Assembly (NCBI GenBank): GCA_946629885.1 | Contig: CAMOYI010000014.1 | Location: forward strand, 2,013-66,012 | From: an uncultured Mycoplasmatota bacterium | GTDB lineage: Bacteria; Bacillota_I; Bacilli_A; RF39; UBA660 | Direction: 5' to 3' | Length of the DNA: 64,000 nucleotides | Shown: positions 1,358 through 29,489 of the stretch, in pieces | Layout of the letters: every line of letters begins with the position of its first letter | Numbering within the stretch: the stretch's first letter is position 1 | The notes under the pieces: model-generated | What the model saw: only the letters and a program-made list of their open reading frames with translations | What the model was told of the DNA's origin: nothing | Database searches by the model: none | Program-made: the position numbers and the translations under genes

Positions 1358-1393
1358 ATTGTTCACCTAATTTAATTTATGTTAGATATCAAT

Positions 1394-9000: not shown

Positions 9001-10757
9001 ATTGTTGTCCTAGTAAAATAACCTCCTACACCATTTGGCAATAGATTAACTATTTCTTCTGTATATGGTAGAAGAGATGCACCAGTATTTTCATTTAAAA
9101 TATAGTATGTAGCTGTTGGATCATATTCACTATCAGCTCTTACATAATAATCACATCCACCATAAGTTGTACAGTAATCATAGTATCCGCCATTATGAGG
9201 CTCTAGATAAGCCGAATATGATCCAGCTGGAAAGTCCTCATACCTTGAAATTCTGTATTTTAAAAAATATTGACTAAAATCTGTTATTCCTTCGTAAACT
9301 TTTCTGGTTTCAGTGGCCTCGATTTGCTGCATACCGGTTTTAAAGTTATTCGCTAAACTAGATAGTGTACTAGAACTGGTCAATTCATATACTACTCCAG
9401 TGTTCCAAATTGCATACATTGTAATACTAATTGGCTCTTCAACACTAGATACTGGAATTTTCACATATCTAGTATAATCAGTCATATCTATAGAGATTTC
9501 AGAACCTTCATAATCTGTAATCCATCCCATAAACACTTTAGATGTAGGTCTATTAGCGTAAGGGTTATCAATTAAGTCAATTGTAATATAACCATTTTCA
9601 ACGGGATAATACTTATAATATATGATATTTGAATATAGTTCAGTATCACTTACATAGCCGGTAAAATTGCCTGCAATATCAGTTCCAGAATATTTAATAT
9701 ATACTTTAGCTAAATTTTGATCAGTGTATTTATTTAGCCTGTTAAAGTCAGGAATATTTCCACTATCAGTAAAATACGTGTAGTCCATCGCTGTATAATA
9801 GTTCAAATCTGTAACTAAGTCATTTATATATACAGTATCACCGTCTATACCAGTGTTGTGTGCTTCGATAGTTGCACTTTTCAAAGGAACTTTAGAAATA
9901 TTTTTCTTTACAATGGTATTATTTTTAATGACTACGTTGTCATTAACTATTAATAAAGAGTAATTATCAACATTGATATTTTCAAGTAAAGGAGTTTTAT
10001 CATCTACTAATTCATAATAATTTATGTCTTCTGTACTATCGCCAATAATAGGTTTTAAATTAGCATTTACATATACATTATCAATCGATGTACCACTCTT
10101 ATCAATTACAATATCGGTTGAAAGATTGCTGTTTTCATTGACTAAAATATTAAAAATGACATTGTCTATAGATGAATCATTATCAACACGTGATAATAAA
10201 GCCACTTCTGATTGAGTTCCACTCGTATTGACAGCACCATTTATTGTCAATAATGAGAAATTTGAGTTATTAGATGTAGCCGTGAGTAAACCAGTATTAT
10301 TCGATATGTCAAATTTCATATCTGCAAAACTAATATTTTTAATGGTAGCGTTGTCAACTGAAGCGAAGATAGAATTAGTTACATGAGCATTGCTAATAGT
10401 ATGACCCAATCCATCAATCGCACCTGAGAAAGGGATCTTATTATTAATAGAAATGTTATGGTTACCATAATCAAAACTTTCAGTAATTAAATAATTTTTA
10501 TTAAAATATACAGACGAATCATCGCTTTCAAGAATATTCTTAAAATATGCAAATTCTCCGGCATTTGAAATTAAATATGGATTTTCGAGAGAACCAGTAC
10601 CACTCTTAAAAGATGTCGCAGCAACTCCGTCCCAGGCTGTGGTAGTAGTATCTACGCTAAAAGTCGAAACTATTTTCCACGATAAAAGAGAAATAACAAC
10701 AGTTACTATCAAAATAGGTATAAATTTATGCTTTTTTAGTATCGACTGCAATTTCAC
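3057..10757 (-). CDS. Giant secreted surface protein (2566 aa) with dozens of glycine-rich parallel beta-helix repeats of about 20-22 aa (Pmp-like GGxN/xxN repeats)
   Basis: N-terminal signal/TM segment (KHKFIPILIVTVVISLLSW). The central roughly 1000 aa is a tandem array of units such as TI.NVYGGGN....T.N..VN.G ([IV]YGG[GS]N recurring about 40 times). The C-terminal approximately 1300 aa is non-repetitive. No LPXTG motif. Confidence 0.8.
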   Translation of the reverse strand: MKLQSILKKHKFIPILIVTVVISLLSWKIVSTFSVDTTTTAWDGVAATSFKSGTGSLENPYLISNAGEFAYFKNILESDDSSVYFNKNYLITESFDYGNHNISINNKIPFSGAIDGLGHTISNAHVTNSIFASVDNATIKNISFADMKFDISNNTGLLTATSNNSNFSLLTINGAVNTSGTQSEVALLSRVDNDSSIDNVIFNILVNENSNLSTDIVIDKSGTSIDNVYVNANLKPIIGDSTEDINYYELVDDKTPLLENINVDNYSLLIVNDNVVIKNNTIVKKNISKVPLKSATIEAHNTGIDGDTVYINDLVTDLNYYTAMDYTYFTDSGNIPDFNRLNKYTDQNLAKVYIKYSGTDIAGNFTGYVSDTELYSNIIYYKYYPVENGYITIDLIDNPYANRPTSKVFMGWITDYEGSEISIDMTDYTRYVKIPVSSVEEPISITMYAIWNTGVVYELTSSSTLSSLANNFKTGMQQIEATETRKVYEGITDFSQYFLKYRISRYEDFPAGSYSAYLEPHNGGYYDYCTTYGGCDYYVRADSEYDPTATYYILNENTGASLLPYTEEIVNLLPNGVGGYFTRTTIRNGYSVDGMYSNTGELQSGNCNQRNGCTVYQLEQYYENGSLNEMDPNETYYYLTTRDTNVLVLRANVSRESSTYIRNTVPMTITSLNNGNNYMDDARIGINNAYIYANADLRIEYVTMYSTSYFAGNENNPSTNPDTSLASNNIYGNYYNVKIGRGITGRTVTSYSGTTEYYSANGAYAGNVSQIGSSETPKKYKFIVESGHYDKLGATGSAVSSRTSLYVDGKAIWGSDIDRVKSANNTLRVRFCASGNWGGALYGKDSNSIAITQIVKSGEFGYGKLDYDFGIYSGGRGTSGTNHYAARSAIIEGGVIFNLIGGPFTASTRNNTNDTYIYVKGGTIDMIVGGAGLSTTYGNRIVAVTGGNVKYGVFGGSNGSESTGASNQTGEVFGSTFVYIGGTANIGGGDETGMYGVAPGGVFGAGNGRSGYDQVGSVNNSNILINGGTIKGNVYGGGNYGATGYILSSGSTNTKIKILDGTIEGSVYGGGNNNGSGKNNVSSTINIDVTGGTINNSVYGGSRTKGTIYGSTNVTMNGGKIVNSIYGGGEGGYQNSNNPGTYVRDGVSVLINDGRVEGNVYGGSAFGSVNTLNENTTSSSYNTTVTVNDGTIVGSLFGGGKGSTTYTPKVVGNITVTINGGDISNVFGGNDQAGIHDKQNEIHLNAGTIENVYGGGNKSSVTNTHIYQKGSTVTNIYGGSNSLGDVSTTLVNISSGTVQNVYGGNNEGGSCATTNVVINGTANINGSVYGGGNQVDTTTTNVTLNKANGVIPNVYGSGNSANVTTSNIVQQGEISVQNMFGGSNSSGTVLESNITVNSGVAQTIYGGNNAGGNTVTSNIIFNGGQNNTIYGGGNRANGGTSNITINGGESSTVFGGGNNAGVTTTNILFNDGTITDIYGGSNNTGDVTTANVTVEDGSINNIYGGGNLAKVTGNTYVDVNGGNIRLNVYGGGNQGVVKGSSFVTISDATIGGSAYAGGNGLTATLEGNANISIDGETTIGSVDGKAPTSGCVFGGGNQAYTGLEANNNSISTVNIAGGTFYGNIYGGANTSVVYGNTIVNIGSNAISNDSSLTKSDIHVFGHVFGGGEANASGSEIYDWFFISVTEGTHIDIDASGYNNFLIDGSFYGGGNASSASGDSYLNISNYGTIGTPKRNISIQRVTYVTIDNSSILLKGAIDRANDYDKELFAVSRVDDFTIKNNTEIYFETGANLLKKFRSLTSDGTPAAATIDEDNNTITRTVNNRVYMYEGRNLNISKDQQVTDYGEVIGMSFFGIYNYANDGTVNTGIYNNNHSPGDTLDWNETFSKGSYVLGLHETNHNIKINGFYSNFMNEDTMINEVKYIRPTPESSRFYMWFIGENIIEYNVNLVASKYSTLGSVETSFLDFAKPNTTFSITSFDFTDLAQGINLVNKASIPKVASSETQANSNFGLSMESSNSGWLTPGSTGFQSIQTNSRYGRDSYEKDSTNAVPTFLFYLHHSKNITIEEDLGTVRISMIAVTKIDALKNEIKRLVINVNMSTALFQTNEYEGTMTPGDKYELFASTTTNITSKSKLSAYYGLYGSNVNLYKPGYHRALTSSFVLPVGTKITMIELLDGNNLYYYHVIDETDYNRTLQEFSMENECSYDLSTFVTMGTKGSSLYYDDQGRNSIYYDGTDSNEEFIFIVDFEDSNITSDKLGNSLLLEMRDVNDESIITVLGMQRDQLTYNLYADKDAVITVDASLDDDPLYVGYSDVLNLSIGYQSTTQNGLVVIDTQNNDKKLGMQMHLVDKNGHTVSGTDLVGTTITNGTKTVQADINGYYRLTLSEAVGNVQKWLMFNAQNSLLATGNYTMVIEVFPSVDGVYFEKVTPVVYNLEFNFISSSYGLKPIINPESVILKNGETNNINFSVEYSSLLDNPNIRLSMSRRKYDTTYTQEFESVDLQDYIIEELNASSNQNEYILFDNPNATNSMSFSTPTDLLTGTYRLEFKLYDGETMVGEIYKYIVVR

Positions 10758-10820
10758 TTCTAAGCCTACTTTCCTATTGTTTATTTTATCATAATTAGTA
10801 GAAAAAGGGAATAATTTAGC

Positions 10821-10846
10821 AAAAAAAAAGAAGATAAAATCTTCTT
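10821..10846 (-). terminator. Strong intrinsic terminator between the 368-aa TasA-like gene and the giant gene
   Basis: Minus-strand RNA folds as AAGAAGAU-UUU-AUCUUCUU followed by U9. Confidence 0.7.
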
Positions 10847-10851
10847 AATTA

Positions 10852-11958
10852 TTAAGCCTCATTTGCTTCTCTAATACTTAACTCTAGATTGAATGTAATA
10901 TCTGTACCAGAAGCATTGTTTTCACAGTCAATATCTTGACCTTCAATCCACATGTATACACGCATCTTAGTAACACCTGCATTAAGTGTGAATATGTTAT
11001 AGTCAGTATTAGCTGCCAATGTGCCAGGAGTTGATAGTAACAATCCAGAAGTAGAATATACTCCACCAGAATTTGAAACAGTTCCAGCAGATACTACTTC
11101 AGAGAAAGTAGTGCTATCATATTGAGTAACTGTACCCTTAACTGCACCGATTAAATCCTGTGCTTTATTTGTAGGTATTGCAGCTTTAATACCATAATAT
11201 GTAACTGGATTACCACCACTTGCAGTTAATGCGTTAGAACCAGTGAAACCATATTCAGTACCAACACTGTTGACAACAGCAGTTGAGTGTAAATCGTTAT
11301 TAGGTTCCCAAATTTTAATTGATGGGAAATTCGTGTAATATGCTTGAGTTATTTCTTGAACAGTTGCAGTTGATGCAGCTTCACCAATAGGAACGAATGC
11401 TACACGAGCTGCATTTTTAAGACCTCTATCAGAAGATCCCTCAGCCATAACTACATTTGAACCACTATCAGAGGTATTGATGTATACCTTTTTCTTTGCA
11501 CTAACCTTGAAGAATAGATCAAATGCGACAAATTTTGTTCTGTCTGTTGATTCATCTACTGAATTAGTAGCAAGTGTATATGCACCACTTGTTGCATCAG
11601 TACCGATAACACTACTAAACATATTTAAAACTCTTGTCTTACTTGAACTGTTTTCTGTTGTTGCACCAGAAGTAGATACTGCATCTAATGTTTCTGGGAT
11701 AAAGTTGTTTGCGCCAGAATAAGCTCCAGTTTTAATATCAGATTGAGTAACTACTGATTTCCAAGTACTACCATTTGTTGAAATCTGCAAACCGTCGCTT
11801 GTCTCAACGTGTACATTGATGCTTTCGATATTTACAACTCTATTTGCAGTAAACCATGCATAAGTCGATGCACCAAACATTACGATTGTTAAAAACAATA
11901 GTAATATTAATGATCTAAATTTTTTGTTCTTTTTTTCACTTTTTTTAGCTTTAGCCAT
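10852..11958 (-). CDS. TasA/camelysin-like secreted protein with SipW-cognate signal peptide (368 aa)
   Basis: N-terminus K-rich, then hydrophobic, then GASTYAWFTAN, compared with TasA GGGTWAAFND and CalY GGGTFAFFSD. C-terminal motif RVYMWIEGQDIDC is shared with the paralogs. AGGAG RBS. Confidence 0.7.
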   Translation of the reverse strand: MAKAKKSEKKNKKFRSLILLLFLTIVMFGASTYAWFTANRVVNIESINVHVETSDGLQISTNGSTWKSVVTQSDIKTGAYSGANNFIPETLDAVSTSGATTENSSSKTRVLNMFSSVIGTDATSGAYTLATNSVDESTDRTKFVAFDLFFKVSAKKKVYINTSDSGSNVVMAEGSSDRGLKNAARVAFVPIGEAASTATVQEITQAYYTNFPSIKIWEPNNDLHSTAVVNSVGTEYGFTGSNALTASGGNPVTYYGIKAAIPTNKAQDLIGAVKGTVTQYDSTTFSEVVSAGTVSNSGGVYSTSGLLLSTPGTLAANTDYNIFTLNAGVTKMRVYMWIEGQDIDCENNASGTDITFNLELSIREANEA

Positions 11959-11977
11959 ATAATACCAACTCCTATAT

Positions 11978-12691
11978 CTATTTTTGTTCTATGTGCTCTT
12001 CAGTGATTGTCATATGCATTTTTATTTCTCCACCAAGAAGTGCGTCGGTACAATCCGGATCATCTCCTTCAATCCAAACGACGATAGTAAATCTATCTAA
12101 ATCATCCGGTTTAAAATCCGATACTTTCTCCAAAATAATTGTGCCTTGATTATCTTCGATGTCTTCAAATGGCACAGTATCCTTTTCTGGTTCGCCATTT
12201 AAATGATTTTTCTTAGCGTATGTAGTAGCTTCACCATTTCTATAAATTCGTATCCTTATTGCCTTGTCGACATTTTTTATTATGTCATCGACAATCACTT
12301 CATAGTGATAGTTAAGCACTTCATTTCCTTGGTTTTCAATAAAAAATGTGTATGCTATATAGTTTTCTCCGTTATGCGAACCTTCGCCTTCCTCGTCGAT
12401 GTTCTTTGGGAGCCACTTGTACGATATGTTGTCCATGAACTTTATCGGCGTCGCCTCAAGTTTTCTTTTACCGTGCGAGTTATTAAGACTATCAAATATT
12501 GCCATTCCGCTTTCTAAAGTTTTATTAGAATCTAATGTAACTGTGAACCTACCTTCATTATATATTATTTCGAGAATAATATATAAAACAATTAGAAACA
12601 AGAGTAAAATCAGGAGTGAGCGTCTTACGATTCTTACTACTTTTTTTCTCTTCTTAACCTTATTGGCGGTTACAACAACCTCCTTAGCCAT
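11978..12691 (-). CDS. TasA-like family membrane-anchored protein (237 aa)
   Basis: N-terminal K/R-rich region plus TM anchor. C-terminal FTIVVWIEGDDPDC motif is shared with the neighbouring paralogs. No clear AxF cleavage motif. Confidence 0.6.
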   Translation of the reverse strand: MAKEVVVTANKVKKRKKVVRIVRRSLLILLLFLIVLYIILEIIYNEGRFTVTLDSNKTLESGMAIFDSLNNSHGKRKLEATPIKFMDNISYKWLPKNIDEEGEGSHNGENYIAYTFFIENQGNEVLNYHYEVIVDDIIKNVDKAIRIRIYRNGEATTYAKKNHLNGEPEKDTVPFEDIEDNQGTIILEKVSDFKPDDLDRFTIVVWIEGDDPDCTDALLGGEIKMHMTITEEHIEQK

Positions 12692-12906
12692 AACATCACC
12701 ACATCACATATTGATATCATCTACCATACGTCAATATCGTAAAATATTTTTGGTAAAAAGTCAATATAATTTTTTCGTTAATTATCGAATCACAATTAAC
12801 TCTATTTTATGTAAATTTTGGTGTAAAATGTCAAAAAAAAACGATATTTTCGACAAAAATCATCTTAATTTTTGTAAAATTAAGTTAAGGAAAGGAGTAA
12901 TGGTAA

Positions 12907-13506
12907 GTGAAAAAGCTATTTGAAAAAAAACAAATACGAGTTTTGATGGCCTGTATTTCTCTATTACTCCTAGTAAATCTCATTCAAGAAACATATGCTA
13001 AATATATTTCATCGGCTGATGCAAGTGGAAATTTTACTATTGCAAAATGGGTATTTAATATTAATAATCAAGATGTTTTGGCAAATAGCGATTTCTCTGA
13101 AGTCGTTGTCCCTGTTTTAGAAGATAATGACTATATAGTCGATGGAGTTATTGCACCGACAGCAAAGGCTTACTTTGAAATTACAATTGATTCCACTGAC
13201 GTCGATGTCGCATACACAGAAAACATTACTGTCACTAAAGATGAAAATAATACAGTCTCAGATTTAATTATAACAGGCTATAAAAAAAATGATGGACCAC
13301 TTATAACTGTAAGTGATCCAGAAACATTGACATTAAGTCAAGAATATGATTTAGGAGAGCAAGGAACTAATAAATATACATTTTATTTAGAATGGAATGA
13401 TGACGAAAATGAAGAAACCATGGACAATGCCATGGATACTCTTCAAACTATTGATGGTGTTGCTGCCTTTAATGTAACTGTGAATTTTGTACAAAATGCT
13501 AGCTAG
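12907..13506 (+). CDS. TasA-like secreted protein with SipW-cognate signal (199 aa)
   Basis: GTG start at 12907 after an AAGGAAAGGAG RBS. Contains ETYAKYISSADASG, GVIAPTAKAYFEITID and FYLEWNDDEN motifs. Ends VQNAS*. Confidence 0.65.
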   Translation: MKKLFEKKQIRVLMACISLLLLVNLIQETYAKYISSADASGNFTIAKWVFNINNQDVLANSDFSEVVVPVLEDNDYIVDGVIAPTAKAYFEITIDSTDVDVAYTENITVTKDENNTVSDLIITGYKKNDGPLITVSDPETLTLSQEYDLGEQGTNKYTFYLEWNDDENEETMDNAMDTLQTIDGVAAFNVTVNFVQNAS

Positions 13507-13513
13507 CATTTTG
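13492..13513. repeat. 22-nt perfect palindrome CAAAATGCTAGCTAGCATTTTG forming the shared 3' end of two convergent TasA-like genes
   Basis: Read directly from the sequence. Both genes terminate with codons for Q-N-A-S-stop inside the palindrome, with an 8-nt overlap at 13499..13506. Confidence 0.9.
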
Positions 13514-14122
13514 AGTAATAGTTATTTTAACTTTTATTGCAATCGTAGGATTACTAGGATTGCTTTTTTTGTAGTTACTCGCATTTATTCCCCATTCTGT
13601 ATCTGCTTCATCATTGTCATTTTCATATGGCCATACTAAGTCAAAGTTAACCTTTTCAATACCTGTACCAGCCTGTAAGTTTGTATTAGATCTGCTTATT
13701 TCTAATGAAAACGGATAATTATTTAATAATTCACTTTCGAGTTGTGTACTAGTTTTATCATCACTTTGTACAGGTTGATTATAATAACCTTTTCCTTCTT
13801 GTGATATATATGTGTTGTCGAGTAATCTAACTTCTAGTATCTCATAAGTTAGTGATGCCGACATTTCACTTCTATTATATGCTTTAACCTCATAATGATA
13901 ATCATCCATGCCTGGATATATACTATCGACATTTACATTGATTATGTTGGTAACTTCGTTTTCACCTGCTTCAAAGAGTACGTCCCATCCCTTTACGTGA
14001 ACTGAAACTGATCCATCAATTTTAGTTGCATAAATAAACCATGCAAATGTATTTGCAGAAATTAAAACCACAAGTATGATAAGCCTAAATATCTTACTGT
14101 TTTTGTTTTTTTTCTTAGACAT
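13499..14122 (-). CDS. TasA-like secreted protein with SipW-cognate signal (207 aa)
   Basis: N-terminus K-rich, hydrophobic, then ANTFAWFIYATKIDG. Contains FDLVWPYENDND motif. Ends TQNAS*. Confidence 0.7.
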   Translation of the reverse strand: MSKKKNKNSKIFRLIILVVLISANTFAWFIYATKIDGSVSVHVKGWDVLFEAGENEVTNIINVNVDSIYPGMDDYHYEVKAYNRSEMSASLTYEILEVRLLDNTYISQEGKGYYNQPVQSDDKTSTQLESELLNNYPFSLEISRSNTNLQAGTGIEKVNFDLVWPYENDNDEADTEWGINASNYKKSNPSNPTIAIKVKITITQNAS

Positions 14123-14658
14123 TAGTCATCGTCCTCTTCATCAGTATCATCTCTGTTGATTAATGGATTTAATATCTCATATGCAAGACTTACACCAACA
14201 GCCACAAACATGATATAGTACAAAACGACATTAGTCATCGCTCTACCAATTAAACTAAAGATGAGCGTATGATAGACTACTTTACCATAAACGCTGTCTT
14301 CAGTTATCTCTGGATCTTCAAATTCATTTGCAGTTCCTTTTGTTGTGAAAAAATATTTTTCTTTTTCTTTCCTGATGTTTATTATTCTGTGTGTTATTGT
14401 GAGCCCTTTTAGCTCATTTTTTTCACCTAAATACGTTATGTCATCACCTATTTTAAGGGAACTTGCGTTTTCCTTTTTAACAACAATTATATCTCCGGCA
14501 TGGTATTTTGGTAACATACTTTCCGAAACAACTTGAAAAATATATACATTACCGAGCGCAATTTTGTTATTAGTAACCTTTTGTAAAATAGTAAGTGCTA
14601 AAATAAATACCAGGAAGCAGGTTACTATCCATCTTAAAATCTTCAAAGCTTTTTTCAT
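14122..14658 (-). CDS. sipW: Signal peptidase I, ER/archaeal type (SipW-like, Ser/His dyad)
   Basis: N-terminal TM segment. SESMLP box (catalytic Ser) and TITHRIINI box (catalytic His in place of the Lys of P-type SPases). Confidence 0.8.
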   Translation of the reverse strand: MKKALKILRWIVTCFLVFILALTILQKVTNNKIALGNVYIFQVVSESMLPKYHAGDIIVVKKENASSLKIGDDITYLGEKNELKGLTITHRIINIRKEKEKYFFTTKGTANEFEDPEITEDSVYGKVVYHTLIFSLIGRAMTNVVLYYIMFVAVGVSLAYEILNPLINRDDTDEEDDD

Positions 14659-14668
14659 TTTTTCACCT

Positions 14669-15775
14669 CTATAATCTAGTATTTTCTATCTTGTCTAAGA
14701 AAGCTTTGATACGATCTTGAAACGCATTTTGTATCTCACTCAGACTAGCTTCTTTTTTTGTCTTAATAACAGCTATTTTGTCGCCAATGCGTTCTTGTAA
14801 AGTTGTAAGTGGCATATCTAGATTCAACTCCACAATTCGCTGAATAAGATTATCAGTAATTTCTTGAATAACTTCCTTCTTTTTGTCTTCGTTTGTCTTT
14901 TCACTTAGAGTACTCATAGCTAAGTAGTCCATCAAGAATGTATTATTCATATACTCTTTTAAAATGCCGTTATCTTCGTAGTTCTTTTTCGACTTAACGT
15001 TTTTTGTATCATCTGCCACATGATTTTGTAAAAAGTCCCAAAGTCTCATAGCATATTGGAAATTGGTATTTTTTAAAATGACATTTGTCTTCTTTATTGG
15101 TGGAATTACTCTTGCAACATGTAGCTTTTTAAGAGTTTTATAGACTTCTGTGTTACAAAGCATTGTTATGTCATCATCTAGCCTTTTAATTCTATCTTCT
15201 ACTGGCAATTCACCTGCAGGACCTTTTTTATCGATTAGACTCGATGTATAGTTTAGCTCAATAAAAACCTGTTCTTTCCCAATGCTGCTCTTCGCTGTAT
15301 ATTTTGCCTTTTTAACATCCTTTAAACTAGACTCGGTAATAATACTTTTCTTCTTTATTTCTACGAAGTTTCTCATATTGTTTATTAGAGTATATATTAA
15401 TCTGTTTTCATATGTATCGTAGCTTTCATCTTTGTTTGTGTTTAAAATTTTTGATGGTTTAACATCTCCATTGTCTTCAATTTTTTGTATAAAATTAGTA
15501 TGCTTTGCGAGGTGCTTGATGCTTTCGACAGTTGTACGTCTTGCAAGTTCAATTTTGACGATTTCTTCTTCATTAACAATAAATCTATTGGGATTTCTTA
15601 AAATATTATCTATATAGTGTATTGTGTCTTCCATTATATCTAGCCATTCAAAATCAACTTCCACCTTATTTATATCAGTAGATATAGCAAGACTAGAGCG
15701 AGTGTTATTGCTGAATTTATTGACATCATTTTCACTCGCTTCTCTTAGTAAATTAATAATTTTCAGATTGTTCAT
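14669..15775 (-). CDS. Hypothetical cytoplasmic protein, 9 bp downstream of the McrB-like NTPase (candidate McrC-like or adaptor partner)
   Basis: 368-aa ORF, tightly coupled to its neighbours. No PD-(D/E)xK motif was recognisable by eye. Confidence 0.45.
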   Translation of the reverse strand: MNNLKIINLLREASENDVNKFSNNTRSSLAISTDINKVEVDFEWLDIMEDTIHYIDNILRNPNRFIVNEEEIVKIELARRTTVESIKHLAKHTNFIQKIEDNGDVKPSKILNTNKDESYDTYENRLIYTLINNMRNFVEIKKKSIITESSLKDVKKAKYTAKSSIGKEQVFIELNYTSSLIDKKGPAGELPVEDRIKRLDDDITMLCNTEVYKTLKKLHVARVIPPIKKTNVILKNTNFQYAMRLWDFLQNHVADDTKNVKSKKNYEDNGILKEYMNNTFLMDYLAMSTLSEKTNEDKKKEVIQEITDNLIQRIVELNLDMPLTTLQERIGDKIAVIKTKKEASLSEIQNAFQDRIKAFLDKIENTRL

Positions 15776-15783
15776 TGCATCAC

Positions 15784-17307
15784 CTATGCCATCTTCTTAA
15801 GTCGCAACAAATACTCAATACATTCAGACATTTTATTCTCTCCAAAAGTATCATTTAAGAATTTGATAAATCCATCTATTTCATCTCTGATGTATGCAAT
15901 ATTTAATTGTTCAAATTTCCTCAAAATTTTACGCGCAATAAAGTAATCGATACCTCTTATTTCATCTCCTCCGCAGGCTACAAATACAGGTACAAACTTT
16001 TTCATATGCGCAACTATTCTGTTACCGAAGGCAATACGGAAGTGTTTGATTACATAATCATCCATTTCCTCTATTTTCTTTAAATTGTCTTCATGAATTT
16101 GGTTATTTGCAATTGCATCCTGGAAAAGTTTATCTACATATGAATAATTTATGTCTTGACTAGGTGTATCAATTGGTTCAAAAACAGTACCTTTGTCATT
16201 GATGTCGATCGGCATAGCACGGTCGTATACCTTATCAGTAACCATAAATGTCGAGTCATCGTTATTTATTGTACCTATGTACCACACATTTGCTGGTATC
16301 TGTAATTTACCTTCTTTTAAGTGAACTGGGTCATTCTTCCATGCGCTTGGAACAATTTCTACAATCCACTCGTTTTTATCAGGCATTTCCAAAATAGATA
16401 GCATCTCTGCAAAATAGTATTCCACACGAGAAATATTCATCTCATCTAATATTACTGTGTATATGTCGTCTGTGTAACTTGCAACATACAATTCCTTTAA
16501 AACTTCAGTTTCGTTAAATCTCTTAGTAAACTCATTAAAGTATCCAAACAATTCTGTTCTATCACGCCACGATGGTTGAACCGAGGCAATACATGAATCG
16601 TGTTTTAAAAATTTTCCCCAGGCATAAGCTAGCGATGTTTTACCTGTACCAGAAATACCTTGCAAAATTACAAGCTTTGTCGATGCTAAAGCTGAAATAA
16701 AGAGTCTTATCATATCAGTAGTATAATATAATCTTAACTGACTAGCAGCAAAGTTTCTAAATAGTTCAACTAGCTCAGGCAATTCAAAACTGTTTCCATA
16801 ATTCTGAACCTTATAATCTTTAAATTTGTAGTCGACATCGGTCAATTTTGGGAATCTAATTTCAGTATTAGGATCAACTGAGTCATCTTCTTGTGTAACA
16901 TCTTCAGTATCAGATTCATCAGGCTTTAGTCCAAGTTTAGAAACCTTCATCGCGAGAATTGTTTCCTTTTCTTTCATGAGTTTCGCAACTTCATTATTTA
17001 GGGTTCCAACCTCCTCAAGAAGAGACTCTTGTTCAACTAAAGACTTTCTAATTCTGATATACTTTCTGATTAAGAAATATATTCCAAGCACTATTAAAGT
17101 TAAGAACGCCAAAGTTATAAGTATGGCAAGACCGACTAACAACCATTCAGGAATCGAGAAATCGTTTTTATATTCTCCTACTACCCTTACGTACTCTGGA
17201 ATATTAAATACAGATTTAAATCCCTTAACAAGACCATTAAATATATACTTTATTCCATTAAATATTTGAGATAAAAACTCGTATAAGAATCTCAAAAATG
17301 TATCCAT
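15784..17307 (-). CDS. Membrane-anchored McrB-family AAA+ GTPase/ATPase
   Basis: Two N-terminal TM helices plus a coiled coil. Walker A GISGTGKTS. McrB-type Walker B and sensor ILDEMNISRVEYYFAEMLSILE (compare McrB DEINRA). WYIGTINNDDST (compare McrB GTMNTAD). Confidence 0.75.
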   Translation of the reverse strand: MDTFLRFLYEFLSQIFNGIKYIFNGLVKGFKSVFNIPEYVRVVGEYKNDFSIPEWLLVGLAILITLAFLTLIVLGIYFLIRKYIRIRKSLVEQESLLEEVGTLNNEVAKLMKEKETILAMKVSKLGLKPDESDTEDVTQEDDSVDPNTEIRFPKLTDVDYKFKDYKVQNYGNSFELPELVELFRNFAASQLRLYYTTDMIRLFISALASTKLVILQGISGTGKTSLAYAWGKFLKHDSCIASVQPSWRDRTELFGYFNEFTKRFNETEVLKELYVASYTDDIYTVILDEMNISRVEYYFAEMLSILEMPDKNEWIVEIVPSAWKNDPVHLKEGKLQIPANVWYIGTINNDDSTFMVTDKVYDRAMPIDINDKGTVFEPIDTPSQDINYSYVDKLFQDAIANNQIHEDNLKKIEEMDDYVIKHFRIAFGNRIVAHMKKFVPVFVACGGDEIRGIDYFIARKILRKFEQLNIAYIRDEIDGFIKFLNDTFGENKMSECIEYLLRLKKMA

Positions 17308-17316
17308 GTTTACCTC

Positions 17317-18294
17317 CTATATACTTATTATCTTTGATCTGACATACTCTTTCTTTTTAATTAGTTTTTCAAACTCCTCTGTATTTTTATTGACGAGAAT
17401 GTATGGGAATAGTATCAATTCCATAGTATTTCCATCAAATGATGAGTCGAGTTCCAAAGCAAATGAGAAACCCTTTTGCAAATATTTGTCGATGATATCC
17501 TTATGTTCGATATAGTCACTATATAATAATCTCATAAAAATATGCTTTTTGGCAAGAGTAGAATCCAAAATATTAATAAGTCTTTCTAATTTTTTATCTT
17601 TTTCAAAAAGCGTAGGTGGCAAGTCAACCACATATTTTTTGGAGAAATCTAAGCTAATTGCATTATTTAAAACAATTTGCGCTGCCAAAATATAACAGAC
17701 AAATGCTTTGTCTTCCCTTACTATTCCGCTGTTATAAACTTTGTCTATTGCAAATTCACTATATAAATTTGATATTTTTACATTGTGTCCTAACTCTATA
17801 GAATATAATGTGCGATATATTCTCTTTTCAATTGCAACAAAGTCACGTGTATATAGCGCTTCGTCAAATAATGCTTTATCACACTTGAATCCGACATACC
17901 ATGTCCTTAGTCTCTCCGCCAAATGCTCTCTATCTTCAATTTTAACTATGTCACTCGAGGCAATATACTCGATAAATTCCCCTTCGTGCTCAATCGGACA
18001 TACATCATCAAAATATAAAATATATCCAAAAATCGCAATAATATTTTTTAAAATATTATGGTTGGCGTTCTCACCAAATGTTTCTAATACATCGAGTAGT
18101 TCTTTATTTAATCTATCTGTGAAATCTTTAACTTTAGGGTAATTAGTTTCATCATAATATCTAACCATAAAATATCTATCTAAAAACATAGAACACAACT
18201 CTTTTGAATACTTGTTTTTTAAAATTATTTTAAAAAGAGATAAATAATTTTTTTTTAAAAAGTCCATATATTCTGCAATTATATTTATCTTCAA
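17317..18294 (-). CDS. Hypothetical cytoplasmic protein (325 aa) in the same operon
   Basis: ORF 10 bp upstream of the NTPase gene, with no recognised motif. Confidence 0.5.
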   Translation of the reverse strand: MKINIIAEYMDFLKKNYLSLFKIILKNKYSKELCSMFLDRYFMVRYYDETNYPKVKDFTDRLNKELLDVLETFGENANHNILKNIIAIFGYILYFDDVCPIEHEGEFIEYIASSDIVKIEDREHLAERLRTWYVGFKCDKALFDEALYTRDFVAIEKRIYRTLYSIELGHNVKISNLYSEFAIDKVYNSGIVREDKAFVCYILAAQIVLNNAISLDFSKKYVVDLPPTLFEKDKKLERLINILDSTLAKKHIFMRLLYSDYIEHKDIIDKYLQKGFSFALELDSSFDGNTMELILFPYILVNKNTEEFEKLIKKKEYVRSKIISI

Positions 18295-18305
18295 GATAAT
18301 TCCTC

Positions 18306-19217
18306 CTATCTTCCACCTAATTCAGTAACAGTTATTGGGGCATAACCACCCGCGTTGGTACTAAACACGTCTTCGGCATTTACTTTATAAAATTTTACAT
18401 CTATTGCACTCATAGGATTTATATTTGTCGTAAAAGAATTAATATATGGTATACCATTAATTATATTTGTCGTGTAGTTATTTGTTTCAATAATATTGTC
18501 AGTAGAATCGATAATTAGGGCATTTGCGTCAAATGACACGCTTACCTCTGTTCCTTCGCATTTTGTCTTATCTTCTTGCGAGAGCTCTCTATATTCATCT
18601 ATACTAATCCTATCCAGTGGCTGGTAGTCTCCAAATGCGGTTTTCACAATATAGTAATTTTTAGCATTAGTAATAGTAAGCTTAGCATATACAGGCCCGT
18701 AATCTGTTAATGTATACGAAATTCCGCTTTGAGCTACTTGGTAAAAAAAATCTGCGTATAAATTTTGTTCATAAGGGAATGTGCTTTTAGCAGCGATATC
18801 AATAAGAAGCGTATCATGTTCATTAAATTTTTCCAAAGGTTGAACATGAATTACGACAGTATCTGTATGATCTGGGTCGGATGCATATATCACACCACTT
18901 TTACTCTCGAGACTGCATTCCACATTGTCAGGACAATCGACAAATACTTCATATGGCACATCATAGTCCACATAGTATAAATTATTCTTCTTAGTACTTA
19001 AATCGAAGGTGATATCAAAGGCTCCTACACCCGACCAATTGTTCAAGGTATATATAGTTGTACCATTTGGCTTTAAGACATTGCTAGTGAATGAAAATTC
19101 TTTTGCATTAGTAAAGTATCCATGATAATCTTCGGCAATAAATTTAGCGAACGTTACTCCTACTAAAGAGATAATCATGATAATTAGTCCAATCAATAAA
19201 TTTTTTTTCTTTATCAT
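18306..19217 (-). CDS. Secreted protein with SipW-cognate signal (303 aa)
   Basis: N-terminus MIKKKN, hydrophobic, then GVTFAKFIAE. Confidence 0.65.
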   Translation of the reverse strand: MIKKKNLLIGLIIMIISLVGVTFAKFIAEDYHGYFTNAKEFSFTSNVLKPNGTTIYTLNNWSGVGAFDITFDLSTKKNNLYYVDYDVPYEVFVDCPDNVECSLESKSGVIYASDPDHTDTVVIHVQPLEKFNEHDTLLIDIAAKSTFPYEQNLYADFFYQVAQSGISYTLTDYGPVYAKLTITNAKNYYIVKTAFGDYQPLDRISIDEYRELSQEDKTKCEGTEVSVSFDANALIIDSTDNIIETNNYTTNIINGIPYINSFTTNINPMSAIDVKFYKVNAEDVFSTNAGGYAPITVTELGGR

Positions 19218-19816
19218 CTTGACACGTCCTGTTCTGCATTGATCTTAATGTCGATTAGTTCAATCATCCCAGCATAATATTCAGGAAAAATCTTATTGCT
19301 AATTGGATAATTAACAACTAAGTAGTAATAATCAGTTACATCATCGTCATATCCCATCATATTAACTTGATCAATGATTAGATGCTTAAAGAAAACACCG
19401 TCATCATTTGTAGTTATAATGTCTTGGTCGAGGATTTCATTAGATAACTGTTCGTCAGAATAAACTGAATATTCAAGCGGCAAATTAGTCGTAGTTATAA
19501 TTTCAATATTATATTTTAAATCTACATCCGCATGGCGTTCACTATTAAAATTAGATACGCTGAAACAGTATACATATGGTTCTTTGTTCGGAACAATATT
19601 TTCGAGTTCGATTTGGCCTGTTTGTGTCCCAACATCAACTATAAAGAAGGCAACATTTGGACTGGATGTTGCGGTAACTCGACTTTCGTATCGCGCTTGT
19701 ATAAAATTAAAGGAACTAATTAAAATAAGAGCTACAATAAAAACTACACTTATTATCAAGTAGTGTTTAAAATCTTTTAAATTTATATTATGTAAAAATT
19801 TCTTTAGCTCCTTCAT
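19214..19816 (-). CDS. Secreted protein with SipW-cognate-like signal (about 200 aa)
   Basis: Start moved to the ATG at 19816 (AGGTG RBS; the TTG at 19846 has no usable RBS spacing). Hydrophobic segment followed by SSFNFIQARYESRV. Confidence 0.55.
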   Translation of the reverse strand: MKELKKFLHNINLKDFKHYLIISVVFIVALILISSFNFIQARYESRVTATSSPNVAFFIVDVGTQTGQIELENIVPNKEPYVYCFSVSNFNSERHADVDLKYNIEIITTTNLPLEYSVYSDEQLSNEILDQDIITTNDDGVFFKHLIIDQVNMMGYDDDVTDYYYLVVNYPISNKIFPEYYAGMIELIDIKINAEQDVSR

Positions 19817-19826
19817 TTTGATACAC

Positions 19827-20669
19827 CTACTTAACCTTCGAGTCAATTCTCCTTCTTATTTCGTTTAGATCCAATCTGACAGTATAATTTATAAAGTTTT
19901 TTTCTTTCTCGGAAAGTCTTAGTGGCAATTCTTCACTGCCTTCTTCAATTTTATTTATTTCGCATTTTATATTGTTCAATTCTTTTTTATTGAGTTTTAT
20001 ACCTGGCTCTTCAATCAGTTTATTTATTTCTGATATATCTATTTTTCTTGTCAATTCTAGTAGTTGTTCAGGCTCTCTAAATATATCAGATTTATTTTCT
20101 TCCGACTTCACTTCAGTAATTATTATTGGATTTTCCAGTTCAGTTTCTTTTTTCTTTTCATCGATTTTTTGTTCATCTTTTTTATTGTAAGATAGAGCAA
20201 AATCGAAGAGTAACAATGTTACAAATAGTGCAATAATTATTTTTGGATCAGTCAATACCTTTTTCCACAAGCCTAAGTGAGGAAATATTTTTACCACAGG
20301 TCCAATTATTTGATCTATTTTAATTGGTTTATCTACAGTATTGTTGTTATCACCTTTTACTATAACGCTATCGCCATCGATATATACAACACGGTGAGTA
20401 ATAACAGATTCTCCGTCAGTAAAAGCTATTATGTCGTCCTTTTCTATATTTTTGTTTCCAAACTTTACTGCAATTACATCGTTGATATCTAGGGTTGGTT
20501 TCATTGAACCACTTGCAACTTCAAAGAAAGTATACCCAAAGTAATTCGGATACAACTTATTTGAGAATGTGACACTGACTTTTCCATAAATTATGAGAAC
20601 TAATATTGCTAATAGTATATAAGTAAGACCATTTATAGTTATTTTTACTATCTTTTTAATATAGTTCAT
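19827..20669 (-). CDS. Signal peptidase I, ER/archaeal type (second SipW-like) with a roughly 110-aa K/E-rich C-terminal extension
   Basis: TM segment, then SGSMKPTL and VITHRVVYI boxes, a second TM segment, then a charged tail. Confidence 0.75.
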   Translation of the reverse strand: MNYIKKIVKITINGLTYILLAILVLIIYGKVSVTFSNKLYPNYFGYTFFEVASGSMKPTLDINDVIAVKFGNKNIEKDDIIAFTDGESVITHRVVYIDGDSVIVKGDNNNTVDKPIKIDQIIGPVVKIFPHLGLWKKVLTDPKIIIALFVTLLLFDFALSYNKKDEQKIDEKKKETELENPIIITEVKSEENKSDIFREPEQLLELTRKIDISEINKLIEEPGIKLNKKELNNIKCEINKIEEGSEELPLRLSEKEKNFINYTVRLDLNEIRRRIDSKVK

Positions 20670-20692
20670 ATGTCACCTCCTCTATTCTTTTA

Positions 20693-21250
20693 TTATTCCC
20701 CTAAATATTGTTCACAATGAACATCAAAATTAATATTATAATTTAATCCTATCAATTTATTATCATCTTCGTCATATTCATCAATACTTGTCCAAATTAA
20801 GCGATAATTAATATTTGTGATTTTAGATACATCGTCTTGGCCAAAAATAACTTTATAACTTTTAGTGCTATTTAGTAAATTTGGAATTGATGAATTCTCA
20901 ATAAAAACATCTATATTTTCATGTTCCAATATTTCATCATTTTGCATATCAATGGTACACACTGTTGCAACATCTGTTCCTTCTGCTGATAAGTCTATTC
21001 TGAAGCTTCCTCCATTTCCCGGGGCAATATATCCTTCTCTTACGTGAATGTTATTATCATATATAAACATATCCAATGGTACGCTTTCACTATATGAAAC
21101 AAGGTTGCTATTAATAAAGATTGACCATCTACCAATCGCTAATTCATTTACCGATTCTGCATTGGTTTCAAAAAGAGCGTACGTCTTAACTATGTATAAA
21201 GCCGTAATACAAAGAACGATAAAGCTTACTAAAAACAATCTTTTTTTCAT
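20693..21250 (-). CDS. TasA-like secreted protein with SipW-cognate signal (about 185 aa)
   Basis: MKKRLFLVSFIVLCITALYIVKTYALFETNAES. Shares the IAPG..F.ID and RLIWTSIDEYDEDD motifs with its paralogs. The start is uncertain (ATG at 21250 or at 21298). Confidence 0.6.
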   Translation of the reverse strand: MKKRLFLVSFIVLCITALYIVKTYALFETNAESVNELAIGRWSIFINSNLVSYSESVPLDMFIYDNNIHVREGYIAPGNGGSFRIDLSAEGTDVATVCTIDMQNDEILEHENIDVFIENSSIPNLLNSTKSYKVIFGQDDVSKITNINYRLIWTSIDEYDEDDNKLIGLNYNINFDVHCEQYLGE

Positions 21251-21251
21251 A

Positions 21252-21794
21252 CTAATCGACCGCGTTTTTATCAGCTTTTGACTTTTGGGCCGCGTCAAAA
21301 ATCATCATGATCTCATATATAATGGCAAAAAGCGTAGGCAATATTACCATGAACATAAATCCCCATTTTGATGTAAATACATTTAAGATCATTCCTATTT
21401 TATGGTAAGATTTACTGCTTTCAATTTTACCTATTACATATTCGCCTGAAACTTTTTCTCCGTCAATTGTATACGTGGTTTCCTTACGATCAATTTCTTG
21501 CTTATCTTGAACGAAACCGTTATACACCATTACTTTTGTATTTTTTGCGCTGTTGTAATAAAATACTTTATCCCCAATATTAATTTTGTTATCACTATTA
21601 CGCTTGACAACTAGTAAATCACCTTCCAGAATATCTGGTTCCAATTCATCACTGTCGATTATAAGAAGCGTTTTTCTGCCAAAAGTTGTTACTTTAAATT
21701 CATTGTATGATAACAAGCAAACAGTTGTAAAAAGTGCTATCACGAGCCAAACACTTATAACTACATTCAATAAAAACCTAGCTATTTTTTTCAT
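21252..21794 (-). CDS. Catalytically degenerate SipW-like signal-peptidase homolog (pseudo-peptidase)
   Basis: Has the architecture of a TM segment followed by a peptidase-box region. The Ser box reads IIDSDELEPDI, with the catalytic Ser position occupied by Glu. No THR His box is present. Confidence 0.45.
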   Translation of the reverse strand: MKKIARFLLNVVISVWLVIALFTTVCLLSYNEFKVTTFGRKTLLIIDSDELEPDILEGDLLVVKRNSDNKINIGDKVFYYNSAKNTKVMVYNGFVQDKQEIDRKETTYTIDGEKVSGEYVIGKIESSKSYHKIGMILNVFTSKWGFMFMVILPTLFAIIYEIMMIFDAAQKSKADKNAVD

Positions 21795-21879
21795 ATTATT
21801 ACATTTACCTCCATTTTCCTACTATTTTCATTTTAGCATATTATTATTCTTATTTAAAGTTTTTTATTTAAAATAGAGA

Positions 21880-22866: not shown

Positions 22867-24042
22867 TTAATTAAAACTACTAAATATATCAATTAATAAA
22901 TTTATGAATTTTAATGTCTCTTTTTGTTCCGAAAATAATACGTCAATCTTCAATTCATGATTTATTACTTTTCCTGTAAAAATATGTACATTCAAAGCTT
23001 GTATATTTCGTATAGAAAATACTTTTGTATTCATGTCAAGTTTAAATAAAAAGTTGCCATCTGAAATTGTGAGAAAATTATTACTATATTCTATATTATA
23101 ATTTTTTTCTCTTCTATTTAACAGCCTAATTCTATCTTCTTCAATCATATTGAATAAACCAAATAATTCTATCGAAGTTGATAAATTATTAAAATACTTG
23201 CCTTTATCACATGTTTTCAATTTATAAGGAAACTCAGGCCTATAATTGTCTTTAAACAATTTGTTTCTTTGCTGTTCGAATTGATTAATATCATTGCTCT
23301 TGTATCTAAGTTCAATATTTAATGGAACAATTTTTTCCTGCTCTATTTCGTCATTAGATACATATTTTACTCGAAGCATAAGTTCGTCTTTTAATGACTC
23401 CATATTAACATCTGTTAATTCCTTGTAATTTGAATTTCTAAAGTATGCTTGGTTATTCATGCTGTAGGTTGCGATAGTTTTTTTAGTATTCTCATCAATC
23501 TGTCTATACAATTCAACATTTACAGACGAGTCACCCTGTATTTCTTTATCATCTATCCAGACCGTACCGAAATTAATGTATATCTTACTTCTAGTCGAAA
23601 TAATTATACCGTTCTTAACATATAGTCCATCGTCTTCATAAAACACATCATATATTTTTGTTGCATTATAATTTTCAAAAAAGAATATAAGAAGGCATAC
23701 AATCAGCAAGATGATAATAATTCTTATAGTGTTTTTGATACGTTTATTTTTAAAAACCCTAATTACATAATCGAATGTATTATTAGCCTCATCACTATCA
23801 CACTTAAATTCGCCTGAAAGGATTTCTTCGAGCGATACTCCAAATAGATTTGCAATACGCGGTATTAAATCAATTGATGGATAGCAAATACCATTCTCCC
23901 ATTTACTTACAGCTTTTCTAGTGACATATATCATATCACCTAGTTCTTCCTGTGTTAGATTATGAGATATCCGAAGCATTTTAATAAATGCACCAGTTTT
24001 CTCTGGACCCGGATAATTTATAGAGGTATTATTATCGTTCAT
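22867..24042 (-). CDS. Membrane-anchored XRE-family HTH transcriptional regulator with an extracytoplasmic C-terminal domain
   Basis: N-terminal HTH (LTQEELGDMIYVTRKAVSKWENG), a central TM helix and a roughly 250-aa C-terminal domain. Confidence 0.7.
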   Translation of the reverse strand: MNDNNTSINYPGPEKTGAFIKMLRISHNLTQEELGDMIYVTRKAVSKWENGICYPSIDLIPRIANLFGVSLEEILSGEFKCDSDEANNTFDYVIRVFKNKRIKNTIRIIIILLIVCLLIFFFENYNATKIYDVFYEDDGLYVKNGIIISTRSKIYINFGTVWIDDKEIQGDSSVNVELYRQIDENTKKTIATYSMNNQAYFRNSNYKELTDVNMESLKDELMLRVKYVSNDEIEQEKIVPLNIELRYKSNDINQFEQQRNKLFKDNYRPEFPYKLKTCDKGKYFNNLSTSIELFGLFNMIEEDRIRLLNRREKNYNIEYSNNFLTISDGNFLFKLDMNTKVFSIRNIQALNVHIFTGKVINHELKIDVLFSEQKETLKFINLLIDIFSSFN

Positions 24043-25142: not shown

Positions 25143-25203
25143 ACTATCACCTTTTCCTGGCTTATTATACCATTTTAAAATAATAAAAACCACAAAAATG
25201 TGG

Positions 25204-26733: not shown

Positions 26734-26920
26734 TTTTATTGCCTTCTTTCTTTTTCATCTTTTTATATACTTCAAGTCTATCCATCATTATTTCGTGAGA
26801 ACAACCGATACACTTGAGTTTTAAATCGACTCCAAGTCTAACAATTTCAAAACGAGATTCTCCGCAAGCATGAGGTTTCTTCATGACAATAATGTCACCA
26901 AGTTCTAATTTATTTACCAT
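26714..26920 (-). CDS. DUF951 (YyzM-like) small protein
   Basis: GDIIVMKKPHACGESRFEIVRLGVDLKLKCIGCSHEIMM matches the conserved DUF951 core. Confidence 0.7.
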   Translation of the reverse strand: MVNKLELGDIIVMKKPHACGESRFEIVRLGVDLKLKCIGCSHEIMMDRLEVYKKMKKKEGNKNEKTAQ

Positions 26921-27713: not shown

Positions 27714-27715
27714 TT

Positions 27716-29378: not shown

Positions 29379-29489
29379 TAATACATCACACCTTCTGCAT
29401 AAATAAGTTCTTAAATATTTTAACATATTTGAGGAGTAAAATACAACCATGTTTATACTATTTTAATTTTTACAAAAGAAAAAAGAGAT

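Follow-up and report, generated by a model that had tools for sequence, protein, structure and literature searches.

The 64-kb window analysed here, a stretch of contig CAMOYI010000014.1 from an uncultured Mycoplasmatota bacterium, contains an operon in which three adjoining genes encode a homologue of the GTPase McrB (B507), a homologue of its partner McrC (C368) and a protein of predicted EAL-like fold (A325), set among genes for SipW-type signal peptidases and for secreted proteins (labelled T; the number in each label is the length in amino acids). McrBC is the textbook GTP-dependent restriction enzyme. We propose, with a probability of roughly 0.6, that the three proteins are not a restriction system and instead form an exapted GTP-driven module acting with the SipW-processed secreted proteins. 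The locus is a member of CoCoPALM, a named but uncharacterised class that Bell et al. (eLife 2024, PMC11090510) introduced in two sentences, deferring its analysis to a forthcoming publication. Because the class had already been named and is not new, what we add is anatomy and leads rather than the discovery of a class: new here are the EAL-fold subunit, the linkage to cyclic di-GMP (c-di-GMP) genes and the missing detectable nuclease in CoCoPALM McrC homologues.

A first-pass annotation of the window had described a 507-residue, membrane-anchored McrB-family NTPase with two uncharacterised partners of 325 and 368 residues, and the three open reading frames (ORFs) were found exactly where it had placed them, on the minus strand. 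B507 (15784-17307) was annotated as a CoCoPALM-type McrB homologue, a membrane-tethered AAA+ GTPase, from its ORF and from PADLOC, NCBIfam, PDB and hhalign comparisons. Its McrB-like NTPase module spans about residues 175-507 (15787-16785), as judged by hhalign, PADLOC and the invariant columns of A4, an alignment of B507 homologues reaching down to 33% identity. The three motifs quoted earlier for this protein, GISGTGKTS (residues 217-225), ILDEMNISRVEYYFAEML (residues 286-303) and WYIGTINNDDST (residues 342-353), are all present and are invariant or nearly so throughout A4. In the Walker A motif (G217-T224), G217, G220, G222, K223 and T224 are invariant; in Walker B, D288 is invariant and E289 nearly so; R363 is also invariant. 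While the Walker motifs agree with the McrB hallmarks that had been claimed, the signature loop does not take the classical NxxD form and is NxD, with N348 and D350 invariant. The NxD variant marks a CoCoNuT-like clade of McrB GTPases (Bell et al. 2024, PMC11090510).

When B507 alone was searched against the PDB with phmmer, McrB was the sole match (6ut6, E=5e-4), and the family profile likewise returned McrB only (6hz4, E=1.8e-6). In hhalign, the B507 family aligned with residues 176-356 of E. coli McrB at a probability of 96.8% (E=3e-10), in agreement with the family assignment made at first pass. The NCBIfam McrB equivalog gave E=3.4e-5 and 22.7 bits, far under its cutoff of 637 bits, and B507 is therefore no orthologue of EcoKMcrB. 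The PADLOC candidate-defence model PDC-M26A matched B507 with E=1.5e-35; however, since every NxD-type McrB homologue tested also matches this model, it is not specific. A representative library of 1.84 billion proteins held 8283 relatives of B507, 762 of them at E<=1e-30, where the closest were transmembrane (TM) proteins of about 500 amino acids and most others had 600-870 amino acids with the NTPase at the C-terminus. Judged by its sequence, B507 is an McrB-family, NxD-type AAA+ NTPase in which Walker A, Walker B, the NxD loop and the arginine are intact and which is tethered by one TM helix. From family membership, it would be expected to hydrolyse GTP specifically, in a McrC-stimulated hexameric ring.

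The N-terminal part of B507 accounts for the tether. Residues 55-80 (17068-17145) form a TM helix with a Kyte-Doolittle mean of about 3.0 over 19 residues, followed by a basic cluster, RKYIRIRK. Two TM helices had been expected at first pass; the second did not hold up, as segment 1-35 contains R, E and K, peaks at 0.71 on the same scale and is probably an amphipathic or interfacial helix rather than a membrane-spanning one. The coiled coil of the same annotation corresponds to a heptad-patterned helix at about residues 88-125 (16933-17046), recognised by inspection of A4, in which L103 is invariant and L97, E99, N104, E113 and K121 are near-invariant; an acidic linker follows it. This TM and heptad architecture is kept down to 33% identity. 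The first 150 residues thus consist of the amphipathic segment, one TM helix, the heptad helix and the acidic linker, and a Pfam search of them returned no DNA-binding domain.

C368 (14669-15775, minus strand) is less enigmatic than had been thought, as one of the two supposedly uncharacterised partners turned out to be a homologue of the McrC N-terminal domain. Pfam DUF2357 (PF09823) matched it with E=1.5e-10 and 41.2 bits against a gathering cutoff of 23.3, and matched 38/38 members of the C368 family, with a best E-value of 8.9e-15. DUF2357 is the N-terminal domain of McrC, which enters and activates the McrB hexamer (Bell et al. 2024, PMC11090510). By hhalign and by its invariant columns, the domain covers about residues 30-255 (15011-15688). 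Across the 38 sequences, the invariant motifs are T121-Y-E-N124 and K228-K-T-N231, F239-Q-Y241 and W246. When the family profile (A3) was aligned by hhalign with a 705-residue, CnuC-like DUF2357 protein, encoded beside a B507 relative on a Deinococcus plasmid, residues 46-252 of C368 paired with residues 116-320 (probability 86.8%, E=4e-6), where the alignment ended. When the C368 family profile was compared with E. coli McrC and with the nuclease-domain partner from a Bacillus cereus plasmid, nothing was found, and the PDB profile search returned only a spurious designed helical protein.

The remaining C-terminal tail of about 113 residues (14672-15010) is predicted to be mostly helical, with helices at 271-291, 296-317, 323-339 and 345-364 in a low-confidence AlphaFold2 (AF2) model. 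This model, built from a 41-sequence alignment, had a mean predicted local distance difference test (pLDDT) score of 52, which was too poor for a fold search. A PD-(D/E)xK nuclease family was matched by none of the 38 close and 10 diverse distant C homologues (370-925 amino acids), as the first-pass annotation had suspected for the 368-residue protein, and no column past W246 is invariant in the 38 sequences, so there is no invariant Asp, Glu or Lys. The extra length of the distant homologues gave coiled-coil-type Pfam matches instead (e.g. locus L173). In comparison, the partners in two defence-type loci from Bacillus and Lactiplantibacillus plasmids (L085 and L086) did match PDDEXK_7. These sequence comparisons support well, though they do not prove, that of McrC only the N-terminal DUF2357 domain is left in C368, joined to a helical tail and with no nuclease.

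A325 (17317-18294, minus strand, 325 amino acids from a TTG start) is cytoplasmic and is coupled to B507 across a 9-nucleotide gap, as had been described. Its AF2 model was confident, with a pLDDT of 90.2 and a predicted template modelling score (pTM) of 0.87. In the model, an all-helical N-terminal domain of residues 1-147 (17854-18294), with helices at 5-28, 31-45, 58-71, 79-95, 104-113 and 125-147, precedes a TIM-barrel-like domain at about residues 150-325 (17320-17847). All of the top 50 Foldseek matches were EAL domains; the N-terminal domain lay outside these alignments. A325 had no sequence match in Pfam, NCBIfam, PADLOC or PDB, and hhalign placed it in register, without significance, with one canonical EAL and with an alignment of small operon-linked EALs (probability 2%, E=0.022). 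Since the sequence comparisons were not significant, the EAL assignment is one of fold. None of the EAL catalytic positions (the Glu of EAL, the Asn, ExxE, DDFG and the Lys) is conserved in the A325 family alignment (A5), so that a protein with this predicted EAL fold could not act as a phosphodiesterase.

The trio is embedded in a tightly packed operon. The gaps are 9 nucleotides between A325 and B507, 8 between B507 and C368, 11 to T303 upstream and 10 to SipW178 downstream. T303 (18306-19217, minus strand) is directly upstream of A325 and is a secreted protein with a VTFAKF motif, judging by inspection of its N-terminus. SipW178 (14122-14658, minus strand), directly downstream of C368, is a SipW-type (archaeal/ER-type) signal peptidase I that matched NCBIfam TIGR02228 above its cutoff (E=2e-24) and the SipW model with E=8e-17. 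The last gene of the conserved core, T207 (13499-14122, minus strand), overlaps the SipW stop codon by 1 nucleotide and encodes a secreted protein with an NTFAWF motif. Upstream, the operon continues with T210, a SipW-like peptidase of 280 amino acids, T201 and a SipW-like peptidase of 180 amino acids (19214-21794, minus strand), which brings the operon to three peptidases, each of the archaeal/ER (SipW) type. At its C-terminus, the middle one (280 amino acids; 19827-20669, minus strand) is extended by a charged, low-complexity stretch of about 100 residues, which is absent from the 178- and 180-residue peptidases.

On inspection, the N-termini of the T proteins show a hydrophobic stretch followed by STYAWF, NTFAWF, VTFAKF, ETYAKY or KTYALF, which resembles the A-x-F-type motif of SipW substrates; in the T207 family, A27 and W28 are invariant and F29 nearly so. 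The first-pass annotation had called these neighbours TasA-like, which the sequence comparisons did not bear out: none of the neighbouring secreted proteins matched TasA or camelysin in Pfam or NCBIfam, a PDB search with the T207 family profile returned nothing, and only 1/34 members of the T207 family matched Peptidase_M73 (E=0.022). Terminator-like hairpins at 21909-21883, just upstream of the first peptidase gene, and at 13435-13418, just past T207, bracket the operon, and none was found on the minus strand inside 13500-21800. Because such hairpins are only slightly enriched in the window (7 against 4.8 expected), this bracketing is weak evidence. A promoter scan performed no better than on shuffled sequence (82 found against 82.0 expected).

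The arrangement is conserved across related organisms. A scan of related genomes, with one genome per species, gave 230 loci with a B507 relative, and the synteny counts refer to the best 80 of these 230, in which the B507 homologues are 70-96% identical. All 80 come from uncultured gut or rumen metagenome-assembled genomes, labelled Bacilli, Erysipelotrichaceae, Mollicutes/Tenericutes or Clostridium sp. CAG:1193/914/628/609/567. The families were present in 80/80 (B), 80/80 (C), 79/80 (A), 77/80 (SipW), 76/80 (T207) and 76/80 (T303) loci; an A325 homologue stood directly upstream of B in 79/80, SipW came directly after C in 77/80, and the order T303-A-B-C-SipW178-T207 was found in every one of the 27 loci of the 80 that were printed out. 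Median identities to the proteins of the window were 73% for B, 49% for C, 31% for A, 41% for SipW, 38% for T207, 36% for T303 and 55% for T237, a linked secreted-protein gene. B is by far the most constrained gene of the operon, because its 73% stands against 31-55% for its neighbours. At 1-1419 of one locus, L076, the B-C pair occurs again in a divergent form (65% and 36% identity), with about 9 kb separating it from the main operon downstream, so some genomes carry two copies of the module.

These counts also bear on whether the trio could be a decaying, functionless McrBC remnant. Such decay might be read from the lost nuclease and DNA-binding domain and from an EAL-like partner that has no catalytic residues. 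However, the ORFs are intact in 80/80 genomes with the median identity of B at 73%, the catalytic residues of the NTPase are invariant down to 33% identity, and relatives number 8283 in the protein library. Because this pattern of conservation indicates strong purifying selection, the idea of a remnant is effectively refuted.

To see the module in a broader range, we considered a distant CoCoPALM set, consisting of contigs with B homologues 36-59% identical to B507, which formed 31 B-clusters at 70% identity. In these loci, a C-family gene always comes directly after B, and SipW genes and AWF-motif proteins usually adjoin the B-C pair; in most of the loci, C has a SipW gene right behind it. 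An EAL or GGDEF gene lies inside or beside the locus in 14/31 clusters, a count in which many of the clusters without one are short contigs, and these genes often overlap or abut SipW on the same strand. Three arrangements were seen. In B-C-SipW-EAL, the EAL protein has about 510 amino acids, is membrane-bound, keeps EALxR and DDFG intact, often overlaps SipW by a few nucleotides and is followed by another EAL protein, degenerate and about 1010 amino acids long; this pair recurs downstream of SipW in L093 (13900-19100), L097, L098, L102 and L145. T-EAL-SipW-B-C-SipW occurs in the L116 group and in a cluster of 27 loci, most of which come from human-gut metagenomes; here the EAL protein is small (about 250-270 amino acids), soluble and degenerate. 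The third arrangement is SipW-GGDEF. In the lineage of the window itself, one locus (L020) has a GGDEF gene 8 kb away. Because EAL and GGDEF genes recur in CoCoPALM loci, the EAL fold of A325 is unlikely to be incidental, and the recurring association points to regulation of a surface-structure or biofilm type. The A325 family was not detected in any of 80 metagenomic loci; its one match outside the gut and rumen Bacilli lineage of the window was a 384-residue protein in L087 (E=1.5e-10). L093 has a nucleoside phosphorylase (PNP_UDP_1) gene between its two EAL genes, and L095 (6692-14923) has tandem B paralogues of 465 and 493 amino acids. In L095, the first B is followed by a C-family protein (604 amino acids) that matches the C-family hidden Markov model (HMM), the second by a 1141-residue protein that does not, and the pair sits between a giant protein with leucine-rich (LRR) repeats and a 2193-residue protein. 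The module seems to have been duplicated here, in a variant with linkage to large surface proteins.

Ordinary McrBC was rejected because of the lack of a detectable nuclease, the lack of a DNA-binding domain and the fixed operon context; neither the DNA-binding domain nor the variable defence-island or mobile context of canonical McrBC was found here. The outcomes that had been set beforehand as counting against the first-pass annotation, namely a McrC/PD-(D/E)xK fold in the 368-residue protein, occurrence of the trio in unrelated defence islands and failure of the McrB profile match, were not observed. Another possibility, already raised at first pass as a nested anti-phage module, is that the whole operon, or only the trio within it, serves as an anti-phage or conflict system, in which a membrane-bound, McrBC-like sensor or motor at the envelope would work through effectors other than a nuclease, for example receptor-masking secreted or pilus-like proteins or an abortive-infection type of membrane perturbation. 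B507 does belong to the NxD McrB clade, whose relatives of characterised context are CoCoNuT and McrBC defence cassettes (PMC11090510, and the plasmid contexts described below), and it does match PDC-M26A. In addition, an A-B-C trio in L087 adjoins phage-like holin, amidase and DUF859 genes. The contig of L087 ends before any SipW gene could appear, and the locus may be a phage-borne or prophage-adjacent variant.

We nonetheless consider a defence role unlikely. B is inherited vertically and universally at a fixed position, and its identity is 70-96% across 80 or more species-level genomes, in contrast with the patchy turnover typical of defence genes; neither a nuclease nor any other recognisable effector was detected; PDC-M26A, as noted, lacks specificity; and c-di-GMP genes, such as those of related operons, typically control surface structures and biofilms. 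Among the 2.9 million viral contigs of IMG/VR, only six weak relatives of B507 were found, each matching in the NTPase only, so that the module is essentially absent from viral contigs. The wider neighbourhood is one of housekeeping genes, including an XRE-type regulator, YchF, AbgT, MscS, ParB, ParA, FtsH and TilS, with no defence island. Apart from the XRE-type regulator, these form a minus-strand block at 24042-32727, for which an identification of the upstream 635- and 449-residue genes as MnmG and MnmE was considered and rejected, as they are FtsH and TilS. Of the two readings offered at first pass, the repurposed NTPase fits better than the anti-phage module, considering the operon position, the conservation of B, the missing DNA-binding domain and nuclease, the housekeeping context and the linkage of B, C, SipW and secreted proteins in distant loci; the plasmid relatives and L087 are what the anti-phage module retains.

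A different alternative is that the trio is an independent membrane GTPase module, serving division, envelope remodelling or quality control, and merely shares a transcription unit with the secretion genes. Bell et al. (PMC11090510) describe the N-terminal fusion of CoCoPALM as FtsB-like, alongside the link to signal peptidases, and long relatives of B507 give weak matches to coiled coils of the DivIVA or ZapB type. The much slower evolution of B compared with its operon neighbours could also mean a separate, more constrained role. On the other hand, B507 itself had no match to Pfam FtsB/DivIC, leaving the FtsB-like label unconfirmed, and its GTPase would need a topology with the C-terminus inside, the opposite of FtsB. 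Moreover, the B-C pair stays beside SipW and AWF-motif proteins where the rest of the locus changes. We regard this alternative as even less probable than a defence role.

In the exaptation that we favour, the module would have lost the DNA-targeting parts of McrBC and would work, driven by GTP, on the cytoplasmic face of the membrane in a SipW-dependent secretion or surface-fibre operon. On the model of the McrBC structures (Nirwan 2019 and Niu 2020, as cited in PMC11090510), a hexameric ring of B would hang from the membrane on stalks, and the DUF2357 stalk of C would insert into this ring and stimulate GTP hydrolysis. By way of the stalk and the TM helices, GTP turnover could then control how the T proteins are processed by SipW, exported, anchored or polymerised. 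A325 might work on the AAA+ ring as a regulatory adaptor, with or without binding c-di-GMP, by analogy with FimX on the type IV pilus ATPase, with LapD and with YdiV, which delivers FlhDC to ClpXP. A more ambitious version, in which CoCoPALM is a new class of monoderm surface-fibre (pilus-like) machine with an exapted McrB hexamer and a nuclease-less McrC stalk as the membrane-tethered, GTP-powered engine that assembles or anchors SipW-processed subunits, switched by c-di-GMP signalling proteins and with the EAL component of the RF39-like gut lineage cut down to A325, a catalytically dead adaptor bound to the motor, is tentative, and we hold it well below even odds.

Several observations weigh against the exaptation. 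That B, C or A would touch SipW or the secreted proteins is guilt by association, read from conserved gene order, and the secreted neighbours cannot be demonstrated from their sequences to be TasA-like or fibre-forming. Outside the class, the NTPases most closely related to B507 come from plasmid cassettes of the defence type, B507 matches a candidate-defence model of PADLOC, and in L087 (1-8695) the trio, with A of 384, B of 500 and C of 324 amino acids, comes directly after a phage-like DUF859-holin-amidase block. The defence-type DUF2357 partners of L082-L084, on plasmids, also lacked a nuclease match in Pfam, and because they did, a missing match is weak evidence; with a C368 model unusable at its pLDDT, the absence of a nuclease is read from sequence. 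The EAL link of A325 is given by its predicted fold only, and the association with canonical EAL and GGDEF genes was seen in lineages other than this one, of which many were sampled from related organisms.

If the exaptation is correct, the locus would stand as a clear instance of a motor from defence being taken over for cell-surface biogenesis, and if the B-C pair is a missing energy-coupling or regulatory component in these bacteria, the view of SipW/TasA-type fibre assembly would change. The recurrence of EAL and GGDEF genes, together with an EAL-fold subunit, gives a concrete and testable hypothesis of c-di-GMP regulation. The carriers are abundant, uncultured Bacilli of the gut and rumen.

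Beyond the conserved core, the linked genes T199 (plus strand), T237, T368 (STYAWF) and a giant protein of 2566 amino acids occupy 3057-13506 on mixed strands and lie near the trio in 54-69/80 loci. T199 (12907-13506) is the sole gene of the operon on the opposite strand, and its inversion is kept in nearly all of the related loci printed, L031 being the exception. The 2566-residue ORF (3057-10757, minus strand) has an N-terminal hydrophobic segment and no Pfam match at E<=1e-3; homologues of about 40% identity adjoin the operon in 59/80 loci, and the giant protein could belong to the same system as a surface protein or an adhesin. Upstream of the operon, a 391-residue protein with an XRE-type helix-turn-helix and a predicted TM segment (22867-24042, minus strand), which occurs in 2/80 loci, could be a membrane-bound regulator. 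At 161-1366 (minus strand), the window encodes a peptidoglycan hydrolase with Amidase_3 and four LysM repeats, which means that the organism is walled, although related metagenome-assembled genomes carry Mollicutes/Tenericutes labels. The window is AT-rich (G+C about 30%) and the minus strand carries nearly all of its ORFs longer than 150 amino acids; its GC skew is negative throughout, consistent with a position on one replichore near the origin, with parAB.

With respect to the named class, the locus has the NxD-type McrB with a TM and coiled-coil (heptad) N-terminus, the DUF2357 partner and the associated signal-peptidase genes of CoCoPALM, all verified here. CoCoPALM systems usually have coiled coils on both the McrB and the McrC homologues (Bell et al., PMC11090510). 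For C368, the tail is predicted to be helical in the low-confidence model, and its longer homologues give coiled-coil-type matches, as in L173. Bell et al. mention neither c-di-GMP genes nor the absence of a nuclease, and EAL does not occur in their main text or two supplementary files (PMC11090510). In a literature search, we found no later papers using the name CoCoPALM, and McrB together with SipW retrieved mentions in strain genotypes only.

The nearest relatives outside the class are cassettes on the plasmids Deinococcus p96k, Polaromonas pPNAP01 and Nostoc plasmid2, probably CoCoNuT-like of type II/III. Their genes encode, in this order, a large AAA protein, a hypothetical protein, a McrB-like protein and a DUF2357 protein. 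Their NTPases are 35-39% identical to B507, their DUF2357 partner aligns with residues 46-252 of C368, and they share the match to PDC-M26A. In contrast, their McrB homologues have about 800 amino acids with long soluble N-termini and no TM anchor, their partners have 630-720 amino acids, and their large AAA protein has at least about 1080 amino acids and is accompanied by a protein of 480-550 amino acids, with no genes for SipW or secreted proteins. E. coli McrBC (6ut6, 6hz4, 7vsr) shares the AAA+ core with Walker A and B, the Asn/Asp loop and the arginine, as well as a DUF2357-type partner. It differs in that B507 has a TM helix and coiled coil in place of the DNA-binding domain and NxD in place of NxxD, while C368 has no detectable PD-(D/E)xK nuclease and no profile match to E. 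coli McrC, and the defence context is missing.

The SipW-TasA/CalY system of Bacillus resembles the locus in its SipW-type peptidases and in secreted proteins of about 200-370 amino acids whose signal peptides end in an (S/N)T(F/Y)AWF-type motif, whereas the operon studied here has three peptidases and at least eight secreted proteins, with no sequence match to TasA or camelysin. To our knowledge, no NTPase is known in the SipW/TasA-type fibre system of Bacillus. As for FimX, LapD and YdiV, A325 is like them in having no phosphodiesterase catalytic residues, and differs from them in showing no significant similarity to any EAL family, in its unique N-terminal helical domain and in its McrB-type partner. 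FimX regulates a pilus-assembly ATPase, and YdiV hands its client to an AAA+ machine.

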